Shown here: positions 33,640 through 35,853 of the stretch, piece after piece
Numbering within the stretch: the stretch's first letter is position 1
Layout of the letters: the number at the start of each line of letters is the position of its first letter
Notes under the pieces: generated by a model
The model's input: only the letters and a program-made list of their open reading frames with translations
What the model was told of the DNA's origin: nothing
Database searches by the model: none
DNA from: a virus
IMG/VR virus record: IMGVR_UViG_3300028048_000073
Location: 62,660 to 126,659 of that record
Length of the DNA stretch: 64,000 nt
Direction: 5' to 3' (one strand)
Program-made: the position numbers and the translations under genes

Positions 33640-35853
33640 TTACATAGATTTATGGCAAGTTCTTGCGATAATATCTAATTGCTGCTCTTTTGTCAAATTG
33701 ATAAATTTAACAGCGTATCCCGATACCCGAATTGTAAAATTAGCATATTCTTCTTTTTCAGGGTGTTCCATCGCATCAATCAATTTCTCTTTGCCAAATA
33801 CATTGACATTTAAATGATGCCCACCTTGCGCAAAATACCCATCAAGAACATTACAAAGATTGTTTATTCTTTCTAATTCATTATGACCAATAGCATCTGG
33901 ATTTATCGTTTGTGTATTTGAAATGCCGTCTAAAGCCCAATGATATGGTAACTTAGCTACAGAATTTAAAGAAGCAAGCAGTCCTTCGGTTTCCGCGCCA
34001 TAGCTTGGATTTGCGCCAGGCGCAAATGGTGTCCATGCTTTTCTTCCATCAGGTGTTGCCCCTGTTGCTTTTCCATACATAACATTTGAAGTTATTGTTA
34101 AAATAGAGGTTGTATGCCAAGCGCAACGACATGCGATATTTTCTTGAATTGTATCAACAAAAGTCTTTAATACCCATTTTGCAATTTCATCTACTTCATC
34201 ATTATCTGTACCATATCTTGGAAAATCTCCATCTATTTTAAAATCAATAGTAATTCCTTGTTCATTTCTTATTGGAGATACTTTTGCATATTTTATTGCA
34301 CTTAAAGAGTCTACCACATGAGAAAATCCTGCTATTCCTGTTGCAAAAGTTCTTTCGCATTCTGTATCAATTAAAGCCATCTGCGCAGCTTCATAATAAT
34401 ATTTGTCATGACAATAATGAATAATATTAAGAGCATCAACATAAATTTTAGCAATCTTTTTAAGCATGAGTTTAAAATCTTCAATAACTATATCATAAGA
34501 TAATGGAAGATTCGATAAAGTATCATTAACAGTATAAAAAGATAAGTCTTTAATTGAAATTACTTCTTCGCCTGTTTTTTCATCATACCCATTATTAAGA
34601 GCATATAATAAGCATTTCATTAAATTCATTCTTGCTCCAAAATATTGCATTGATTGTCCAACCCTTGTACCAGAAACGCAACAACAGATACAATAATCAT
34701 CTGACCAGTAGGTTTTCATCAAATCATCGTTTTCATATTGAATTGAACTTGTATTTATTGAAATTTTTGTTGCGTAGTTTTTGAAATTTTGCGGCAAATC
34801 TTGCGCCCAAAGAACGGTGATATTTGGCTCTGGCGCAGGCCCCATATTCTCAAGAGTATGTAAAAATCTGTAATCTGTTTTTGTGACAAAAGATTTCTTT
34901 TCATGCTCTTGCATACCTCCAAGCACCAACGTTGCCCATACGGGGTCGCCAGAAAATAGTTCATCATATGCGGGGATTCGTGCAAAACGAACCATGCGAA
35001 GTTTAAGAACAAATTGGTCAATTAATTCTTGAGCTTCTGCTTCTGTAATTTTACCATCTTTTAAATCTTTTTCAATATAGATATCAAAGAAAGTGGACAC
35101 CCTACCAACACTCATAGCAGCTCCATTCTGTGTTTTGATTGCTGCCAAATATCCAAAATATGTCCATTGAATAGCTTCTTTTGCAGAGGTAGCTGGTCGT
35201 GAGATATCATAACCATATGCTGCCGCCATTTCTTTCATATCTTTTAATGCCTGTACTTGTTGAGAAAGTTCATCTCTTAATTTTAAAGCAGCAAAGAAAG
35301 TTGTGGCATTTTCTAATTCCTCTTCTTTTGCTTCAATTAAAGCATCTATCCCATATAAAGCAATTCTGCGGTAATCACCTACAATTCTACCACGTCCGTA
35401 TGTATCGGGCAAACCTGTTATGATATGATTATGACGGCATTTTTTCATCTCATCTGTGTACATTGAAAATACAGCATCTGAATGGGTTGTATGATAATTT
35501 GTAAAGATTTTATGAAAAGAGGGGTCAGGCGTATACCCGTGCGTTAAACAAGCCTGTTCTGCCATGCGGATGCCGCCAAAAGGCATAAATGCTCTCTTTA
35601 AAGGCTTATTAGTTTGTAAGCCCACTATTGTTTCATGCTCTTTGTCTAAATAACCAGCTGTATGCGATGTAATGGTAGAGACTATATCTGTATCCATATC
35701 AAGGACGCCGCCCTTTTCATGTTCCTCTTTTTGTAATTTTTGTAATTTATTCCAAAGGATAACTGTATTTTCTGTTGGCGGCGCCAGGAATGAAGAGTCC
35801 CCAAGATACTCAGTATAATTATCCTTAATCCATTTACTAACATCAATATTCAA
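33640..35853 (-). CDS. pflB: Pyruvate formate-lyase (formate C-acetyltransferase), a glycyl radical enzyme
   Basis: Collinear with PflB over its full length: [58 protein letters not shown], the catalytic CCVS motif, and the C-terminal glycyl-radical motif [11 protein letters not shown]. Confidence 0.9.

Follow-up and report, generated by a model that had tools for sequence, protein, structure and literature searches.

What does a large phage gain from encoding a complete pyruvate formate-lyase (PFL; formate C-acetyltransferase), and which activating enzyme would install the glycyl radical on it? Both questions are raised by the locus studied here, which lies in a stretch of viral DNA of 64,000 nucleotides (IMG/VR record IMGVR_UViG_3300028048_000073, positions 62,660 to 126,659), referred to below as the window. 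An earlier note on this DNA, made from the sequence alone, had proposed that the phage carries a full-length PFL as an auxiliary metabolic gene, thereby reprogramming the pyruvate metabolism of an anaerobic host. We favour, with moderate confidence, a more specific model in which the PFL of a large phage is activated by host PflA and feeds formate to the phage's own formate-type class III ribonucleotide reductase, NrdD, for the synthesis of deoxynucleoside triphosphates (dNTPs). The positions of the features discussed are collected in Table 1, and related contigs and loci are given L numbers where they need to be told apart.

The PFL gene was read from the sequence as starting with TTG at 35853, 7 nucleotides downstream of the Shine-Dalgarno sequence AAGGAGAG. 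The latter is identical in the relatives L003 and L011, while L007 and L013 have AAGGAG followed by an ATG start. The same product of 737 residues was obtained by an independent gene call on a contig of 100% identity, and no internal stops are present. The protein matches the Pfam families PFL-like (PF02901, 638 bits) and Gly_radical (PF01228, 116 bits), and scores 1042 bits against the NCBIfam formate C-acetyltransferase equivalog TIGR01255 (curated cut-off 994), while NCBIfam models of other glycyl radical enzymes fall far under their cut-offs. Residues 3–737 align collinearly with residues 23–759 of E. coli PflB (PDB 1h16, E=2.4e-262). The earlier description of a full-length open reading frame (ORF) collinear with PflB and possessing both a CCVS dyad and an RVSGY glycyl-radical motif is thus borne out, with C391/C392 and with G712 in RVSGYAV; the loss of these residues, which had been named as grounds for rejecting a catalytic role, was not seen. 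GrcA models match residues 661–737 only, hence the protein is not a stand-alone GrcA/YfiD/T4 Y06I-like protein (~80–130 residues).

In an alignment of 124 PFL sequences, the window PFL has the equivalents of E. coli R176, W333, C418, C419, F432 and R435 as well as the RVSGYA loop with G734, all of them invariant across the set. The domains, equivalog score, Cys dyad, radical Gly and pyruvate-binding residues of the PFL family (EC 2.3.1.54) were all found, and on these sequence features the phage PFL is predicted to be catalytically competent. Identity to bacterial PFLs is 68% over the whole protein, 85% within the glycyl-radical domain and 94% for residues 700–725.

The PFL gene is an old and selectively maintained resident of the phage lineage and does not represent contamination. 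This is concluded from the phage neighbours, a gene order conserved in other samples, the monophyly of the phage PFLs, purifying selection and matching base composition. The window encodes an NAD-dependent ligase, two topoisomerase II subunits, a DnaB-like helicase, a primase and a T4-type RNA ligase 1, as well as an amidase endolysin, Hoc-like/DUF6273 proteins, a pre-neck-appendage-like protein, XkdX and several GIY-YIG and HNH homing endonucleases. More than 28 kb of phage replication, lysis, tail-fibre-like and tRNA genes flank PFL on either side. Contigs of 116, 137, 136.6 and 138 kb from other samples encode PFL proteins 70–97% identical to that of the window, and a length of 190 kb has been recorded for one cluster. 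The local gene order is the same on each of these contigs: a gene for a protein of 226–230 residues comes first, then PFL and a small ORF, with RNA ligase 1 further on. In a neighbour-joining tree, 29 phage PFLs form one clade with the bacterial PFLs outside it; the latter are 67–69% identical and are named in their sources as Lachnospiraceae and Acutalibacteraceae metagenome-assembled genomes (MAGs). Between the window PFL and its 88%-identical L003 orthologue, dS is 0.48 (unsaturated) and the ratio of nonsynonymous to synonymous substitution rates (dN/dS) is 0.13; the PFL values range from 0.09 to 0.14. The GC content of the gene (35.2%) matches that of the window (36.4%). The gene therefore has phage genes on both sides rather than a host junction, and is maintained by selection within the lineage, as expected of an auxiliary metabolic gene. 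The proposal that it is phage-borne is upheld by these flanks and the recurring order, whereas the bacterial-chromosome alternative raised in the earlier note is contradicted by gene content and gene order alike.

No close cultured relative was found among GenBank phages. The best full-length PFL match there is 65% identical and lies on an unannotated faecal contig, while the topoisomerase reaches at most 33% identity.

A self-contained pflB-pflA system, with a TIGR02493 activase encoded together with the enzyme, was not found in the ~80 kb examined, out of a genome that spans 137 kb or more. A six-frame scan of the 64-kb window for CxxxCxxC returned only two short ORFs (79 and 89 codons), taken as spurious, and none in the flanking genes. 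No PflA-type gene is present within 10 kb of PFL in the relatives, and tblastn searches with PflA of the window and of L003–L022, including the stretches flanking PFL in relatives, found only NrdG-type genes. A cryptic activase in the genes flanking PFL was considered and rejected, given that there is no Cys cluster on either side and that the upstream protein is modelled as a CodY-type winged helix. The earlier observation that no radical-SAM activase lies adjacent, and that the flanks lack its motif, thus stands. Its corollary, that activation would need host PflA or an activase elsewhere in the genome, requires amendment: the phage lineage does possess a glycyl-radical activase elsewhere, but one of NrdG type and not of PflA type.

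Host PflA is most likely the activator of the phage PFL, judging from the sequences, since the only activase seen in the lineage is NrdG-type and located beside NrdD. Recognition by host PflA is suggested by the exact RVSGYAV retained in the phage PFL and by its highly conserved glycyl-radical domain. According to section 2.5 of PMC13450708, the 7-mer RVSGYAV alone is a substrate of the E. coli PFL activase, while the ribonucleotide reductase loop RVCGYLG is not. The loops of the two phage enzymes are distinct in the same manner, with RVSGYAV in PFL and RRVCGYIS in NrdD.

The phage NrdD was located beyond the window. Contigs L014–L016, found via a protein encoded at the left end of the window, overlap that end with 96–99% nucleotide identity, and one such overlapping contig comes from the same sample as contigs matching the window at 100%. 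Reading leftward, these contigs encode the remainder of a recJ-like gene, a helicase, DNA polymerase III alpha (PolIII alpha), guanylate kinase and NrdD (730 residues), whose start lies ~7.4 kb outside the window as counted from its position 1. Directly after an NrdD with 98% identity to that of the phage comes an NrdG of 161 residues, which scores 150 bits with TIGR02491 (cut-off 126) and only 31–42 bits with the PflA model (cut-off 232). The 116-kb contig with an 88%-identical PFL also encodes NrdD, NrdG and dUTPase, ~36–38 kb from PFL by contig coordinates. NrdD P0157, looked up in search of a second contig with both genes, turned out to be a bacterial chromosomal NrdD. The inference of an anaerobic host made in the earlier note is strengthened by the two oxygen-sensitive glycyl radical enzymes that the phage encodes. 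Anaerobic Gram-positive Clostridia of the rumen or gut are the probable hosts, and the sample names STEW19 and TONG22 suggest a rumen origin.

Alignment of the phage NrdD with that of T4 (E=7e-100) pairs its SMGCRS and NCCL with T4 PMGCRS and NCCL, so that the finger-loop MGCRS is common to both and the NCC cysteine corresponds to T4 Cys79. It is accordingly assigned, by alignment, as a predicted formate-using NrdD1. Members of the NrdD1 subclass, which includes the T4, E. coli and L. lactis enzymes, use formate as reductant (PMC9176816 Table 1; PMC4390871; PMC4493059, the last citing Mulliez et al. 1995).

Because the phage encodes its own formate-type NrdD, formate supply appears to be the most specific benefit that PFL, the classical formate source, could offer. 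In the model we propose, PFL would be transcribed early by the host RNA polymerase as the second gene of an operon with a consensus promoter, and host PflA would then install the glycyl radical. The activated enzyme would convert pyruvate and coenzyme A to acetyl-CoA and formate, the latter acting as stoichiometric reductant for the phage NrdD and thus securing a supply for dNTP synthesis. The phage would gain acetyl-CoA and ATP in addition. NrdD and NrdG occupy the opposite end of the leftward arm to which PFL belongs. We infer the coupling of formate to NrdD, the activation by host PflA and the early expression from sequence and gene context; the coupling is the best-supported specific role, while not proven. 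The broader idea of reprogrammed pyruvate metabolism can be narrowed in this way to a putative formate supply for the class III ribonucleotide reductase.

The arrangement of the locus is consistent with expression as a unit. A perfect sigma-70/sigma-A-type promoter sits at a coding-strand switch, upstream of the gene for the 230-residue protein and PFL. It is conserved in L003, and in L007 reads TTGACT-17-TATAAT with an additional TG extension. Given that the promoter has the host-type consensus, PFL is probably transcribed early by host RNA polymerase. The gene preceding PFL had previously been delimited as an ORF of 35869–36603. The absence of CxxxCxxC from it is confirmed (the protein has 2 Cys), but its true start is placed at ATG 36561, since the longer ORF overlaps its own promoter. 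The resulting protein of 230 residues has a weak NCBIfam match to the CodY C-terminus. Its AlphaFold model (predicted local distance difference test score, pLDDT, of 85) retrieves CodY in all top 18 Foldseek PDB hits, by virtue of the C-terminal winged helix, and superposes on CodY 2b0l with a root mean square deviation of ~2 Å over 83 residues. There are no recognisable relatives of the N-terminal domain. In all relatives examined, PFL has this gene directly upstream, and only 14 homologues of the protein were found, of which those with contigs examined belong to this phage clade. The model indicates a DNA-binding protein rather than an activase, possibly a regulator by which the phage imitates host CodY or competes with it. 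A search of the window for CodY boxes gave 25 loose matches against 15 expected, with none at the PFL promoter.

Directly downstream of PFL, a conserved ORF of 107 residues has no Pfam or PHROG match and no Cys motif. It is followed by the gene for an 801-residue protein, the last of the apparent transcription unit, with a Pfam MVP_shoulder match of 27.1 bits (cut-off 25) and a weak Band_7 (band-7/SPFH) match on record for an orthologue. This protein is kept in the closest relatives at 801 residues, and L013 has a gene for 807 residues at a similar position. A strong terminator-like hairpin closes the unit. Past it, the minus strand continues to the left edge of the window with RNA ligase, kinase, endolysin, topoisomerase, ligase, helicase and primase genes.

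Two readings of the stop codons were considered and set aside. The 230-residue gene and PFL share a reading frame across a TAG, both in the window and, by its 15-nucleotide spacing, in L003, which raised the option of a read-through fusion via the phage tRNA with anticodon CTA. This is not conserved: the spacing between the two genes differs in L007, and the upstream gene of L007 and L013 apparently ends in TAA and not TAG. Furthermore, reading TAG, TGA or TAA as sense in the window merges no real genes.

The occurrence of PFL in other viral genomes was determined by a profile scan of IMG/VR, which gave 24 viral contigs with PFL in ~11 distinct lineages. In two of these (L023 and L042) a bacterial-type pflA stands beside PFL, and L001/L023 and L042 carry a bacterial-type pflB-pflA pair. 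PFL is located directly within an nrdDG cluster in two independent lineages, L002/L024 and L038/L044. L002/L024 is a single IMG/VR contig of 109 kb, with the order nrdD-PFL-nrdG-dUTPase at L002 7726–12708. L038/L044 have nrdD-nrdG, a 77-residue GrcA-like glycyl-radical ORF and then a PFL body of 660 residues (corresponding to residues 3–659). In-frame TGA codons occur in L038/L044 at Trp positions, including the W333 position, indicating that TGA is read as Trp. In L045, a small glycyl-radical ORF overlaps the end of the PFL body in another reading frame. Two irregularities were seen in L002: a 5-nucleotide insertion exactly at the CxxxCxxC motif shifts the frame of nrdG, which is either a pseudogene or affected by an assembly error, and PolIII alpha is split into three ORFs.

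Several observations weigh against coupling of PFL to NrdD through formate. In ~7 of the ~11 viral PFL lineages, neither nrdD/nrdG nor an activase lies within 6 kb; at least one of these, L026, has phage-type neighbours encoding NT5C, Thg1-like, HD and Metallophos proteins. Conversely, no PFL or GrcA-like gene occurs within 4 kb of NrdD at any of the 80 NrdD-bearing IMG/VR loci listed, and among these 80 no contig name is shared with the PFL-bearing contigs. Because of these counts, linkage between PFL and nrdDG is recurrent but not general. In the phage studied here, PFL and NrdD are ~41–43 kb apart and hence not adjacent, the NrdD1 status of the latter comes from alignment to T4 NrdD, and the absence of PflA holds for only the ~80 kb of the genome covered.

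The recurrence of the linkage has to be considered against the possibility that PFL is a general booster of fermentation, providing acetyl-CoA, acetyl-phosphate, ATP and redox balance during infection with no specific tie to ribonucleotide reduction. This agrees with the scarcity of nrdD/nrdG within 6 kb of most viral PFL loci, and PFL has the attraction of yielding acetyl-CoA without reducing NAD or ferredoxin. A lytic-phage pflD from a duck-caecum virome has also been read as a fermentation-type gene (PMC13069815). Nevertheless, we regard a purely fermentative role as unlikely: it leaves unexplained both the presence of PFL in or next to nrdD-nrdG in two independent lineages and its position at the head of a replication/nucleotide arm that ends with guanylate kinase, NrdD, NrdG and dUTPase. 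A different destination for the formate, namely one-carbon metabolism (10-formyl-tetrahydrofolate for purines and formylmethionyl-tRNA, not NrdD), is highly improbable. PFL-derived formate does enter formate-tetrahydrofolate ligase in several Firmicutes, and the gene sits among those of nucleic-acid metabolism, yet the window and the flanks examined contain no recognised gene for folate or purine metabolism, and nothing ties PFL specifically to such genes, whereas linkage to nrdD-nrdG is observed in other phages. That the locus is an artefact (a fragment of host chromosome, an assembly chimera or a decaying, non-catalytic passenger) is barely credible. Many phage-labelled PFL records are indeed host contamination or prophage edges, such as L001/L023 and L042, but here the gene order recurs in independent assemblies of different samples, with PFL identities of 70–97%. 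The matching GC content, dN/dS of ~0.13, uninterrupted frame, intact catalytic residues and tens of kb of phage flanks speak against it as well.

The identity of the activase bears on how far the phage depends on its host. The arrangement nrdD-PFL-nrdG in L002, together with nrdD-nrdG, the 77-residue subunit and the PFL body in L038/L044, hints at a self-contained two-enzyme module, in which PFL formate would serve NrdD and one NrdG-type activase would charge both enzymes with no need of host PflA; we consider this quite unlikely. For the underlying proposal, that the phage NrdG-type activase charges both NrdD and PFL and so makes the phage independent of host PflA, one can cite that NrdG is the sole glycyl-radical activase seen in the lineage within the stretches examined, that PFL lies between nrdD and nrdG in L002 while nrdG directly precedes the 77-residue ORF and PFL body in L038/L044, and that the PFL and NrdD loops share R-V-x-G-Y. 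It is nonetheless very unlikely. Known activases are partner-specific, the E. coli PFL activase taking RVSGYAV and not RVCGYLG (PMC13450708, section 2.5), and the phage enzymes keep correspondingly distinct loops (RVSGYAV versus RRVCGYIS). In addition, the phage activase scores as an NrdG equivalog, far under the PflA cut-off, and the L002 nrdG is frameshifted at its cluster motif. Activation by host PflA with delivery of formate to the phage NrdD hence remains the model we prefer.

In comparison with known systems, the phage enzyme resembles bacterial PflB/TdcE (TIGR01255) in its two-domain architecture, with ~55% identity to E. coli PflB and 67–69% to clostridial PFLs. It has the same Cys-Cys dyad, Arg176, Arg435, Trp333, Phe432 and RVSGYAV, and its closest sequences are from the Lachnospiraceae and Acutalibacteraceae MAGs. 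It differs from bacterial PflB in being phage-encoded, in the lack of a pflA partner gene (the bacterial-type locus L001 being pflB-pflA), in its TTG start, in an N-terminus shorter by 13–20 residues and in its apparent co-transcription with a CodY-type DNA-binding protein.

A further parallel is provided by the GrcA-like proteins of T4 and its kin (Y06I/vs.6; phrog_1209), which are likewise phage-encoded glycyl-radical modules of the PFL family that need the host PFL activase. An experimental precedent comes from T4, a phage with a formate-dependent NrdD, in which PFL activity is sustained by Y06I: this protein restores PFL that oxygen has fragmented (Wagner et al. 2001, as cited in PMC13450708). 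A GrcA-like gene is present in ~1,580 records of T4-like and T5-like phages. These proteins of ~120 residues repair the host PFL, whereas the window phage supplies the entire enzyme of 737 residues; the split PFL of L038, L044 and L045 (a 660-residue body plus a 77-residue ORF) is intermediate between the two. T4 NrdD/NrdG represents a partner system and not a homologue of PFL, the phage lineage sharing with it MGCRS, the Cys79 equivalent and the NrdG equivalog.

PFL genes of phages are already catalogued, as shown by those on record in phrog_21327, IMG/VR and PMC13069815; what is new is this clade and the hypothesis linking formate to NrdD. Like the window PFL, the members of phrog_21327 (a PHROG family annotated as of unknown function), of the 24 IMG/VR contigs and the pflD of PMC13069815 are full-length formate C-acetyltransferases read as metabolic helpers. 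The window clade is only 54–67% identical to the IMG/VR examples and is missing from that set. PMC13069815, a 2026 virome paper, presents the duck-caecum pflD of a lytic phage as an unvalidated metabolic gene, and among the viral fermentation genes covered in reviews only pflA is listed (PMC12713726). Neither a link of viral PFL to a phage's own NrdD nor the activase question was found in the literature searched.

The remainder of the window contains further features of a large phage. A tRNA array at 48389–54107 on the minus strand comprises ~17 tRNAs (14 from ARAGORN and 3 from Rfam); the Rfam scan of the window returned tRNAs only, with no intron or riboswitch. The T4-type RNA ligase 1, a kinase and a nearby nucleotidyltransferase-like protein look like a tRNA/RNA repair set beside this large array. 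At the left edge, a recJ-like gene (1–2644, minus strand) is split by a GIY-YIG ORF (1082–1816) into a DHH half (1991–2644) and a RecJ_OB half that is cut by the edge of the window, while in L019 the gene is unsplit (586 residues; 1340–3100). A second GIY-YIG gene (4694–5461) is absent from the otherwise 98–99%-identical L016. On the plus strand, the LRR_5 and DUF6273/Hoc-like genes probably encode diversified receptor-binding or decoration proteins, and the first two DUF6273/Hoc-like paralogues share ~74% nucleotide identity. The region 26000–28300 has a GC fraction of 0.40–0.51 compared with ~0.33 on either side; it contains small ORFs without family matches and a non-coding gap of ~360 nucleotides (26938–27296), and Rfam found nothing in it.

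Table 1. Coordinates of the features discussed (window positions unless a locus is named).
Feature	Position	Strand	Evidence
PFL (formate C-acetyltransferase), 737 residues, full length	33640..35853	minus	family and structure matches
Shine-Dalgarno sequence of PFL	35861..35868	minus	direct sequence reading
Cys391-Cys392 codons, catalytic dyad (= E. coli C418/C419), in CCCVS	34678..34683	minus	1h16 alignment
RVSGYAV codons, residues 709–715, glycyl-radical loop; Gly712 = E. coli G734	33709..33729	minus	1h16 alignment
Sigma-70/sigma-A-type promoter TTGACA-17-TATAAT, head of leftward arm	36604..36632	minus	12/12 consensus positions
230-residue protein, first operon gene; novel N-terminal domain and C-terminal CodY-type winged helix	35869..36561	minus	AlphaFold/Foldseek
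Conserved 107-residue ORF	33269..33592	minus	gene call in L011, L003, L005
801-residue protein; MVP-shoulder/band-7-like region and long coiled-coil tail	30777..33182	minus	Pfam
Intrinsic-terminator-like hairpin, 11 pairs then T-run	30737..30764	minus	sequence
Split PFL loci	L038 3048-5817; L044 5495-8264; L045 6001-8228		
tRNAs added by Rfam	50895-50965; 51466-51537; 53153-53284 (132 nucleotides, may hold insert)	minus	
Amber-suppressor-like tRNA, anticodon CTA	49391-49466	minus	tRNA scan
Unassignable tRNA	53882-53957	minus	tRNA scan
Further mobile endonucleases, replication arm	8318-9343; 11846-12880; 13254-14192; 19304-20293		
LRR_5 (BspA-like) repeat protein	36712-38211	plus	
Three paralogous DUF6273/Hoc-like genes	38849-40024; 40774-41955; 42047-43231	plus	
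T4-type RNA ligase 1	28278-29396	minus	
AAA_33/KTI12-like kinase	24935-25468	minus	
Nucleotidyltransferase-like (RlaP) protein	29579-30334		

In rumen and gut fermentation, formate serves as a central currency; it is also a main substrate of methanogens, and in many fermentative bacteria its main source is PFL. Since a clade of large phages carries and retains a PFL of its own, infection can change how much formate and acetyl-CoA flows through the infected cell. The missing PflA constitutes a natural test of activase specificity: either host PflA accepts the viral PFL, or the range of NrdG-type activases is wider than known. The proposed link between formate and NrdD would offer a concrete and testable rationale for a viral metabolic gene known until now only from lists, and could likewise account for the GrcA-type part for the repair of PFL that is present in very many T4-like and T5-like phages.

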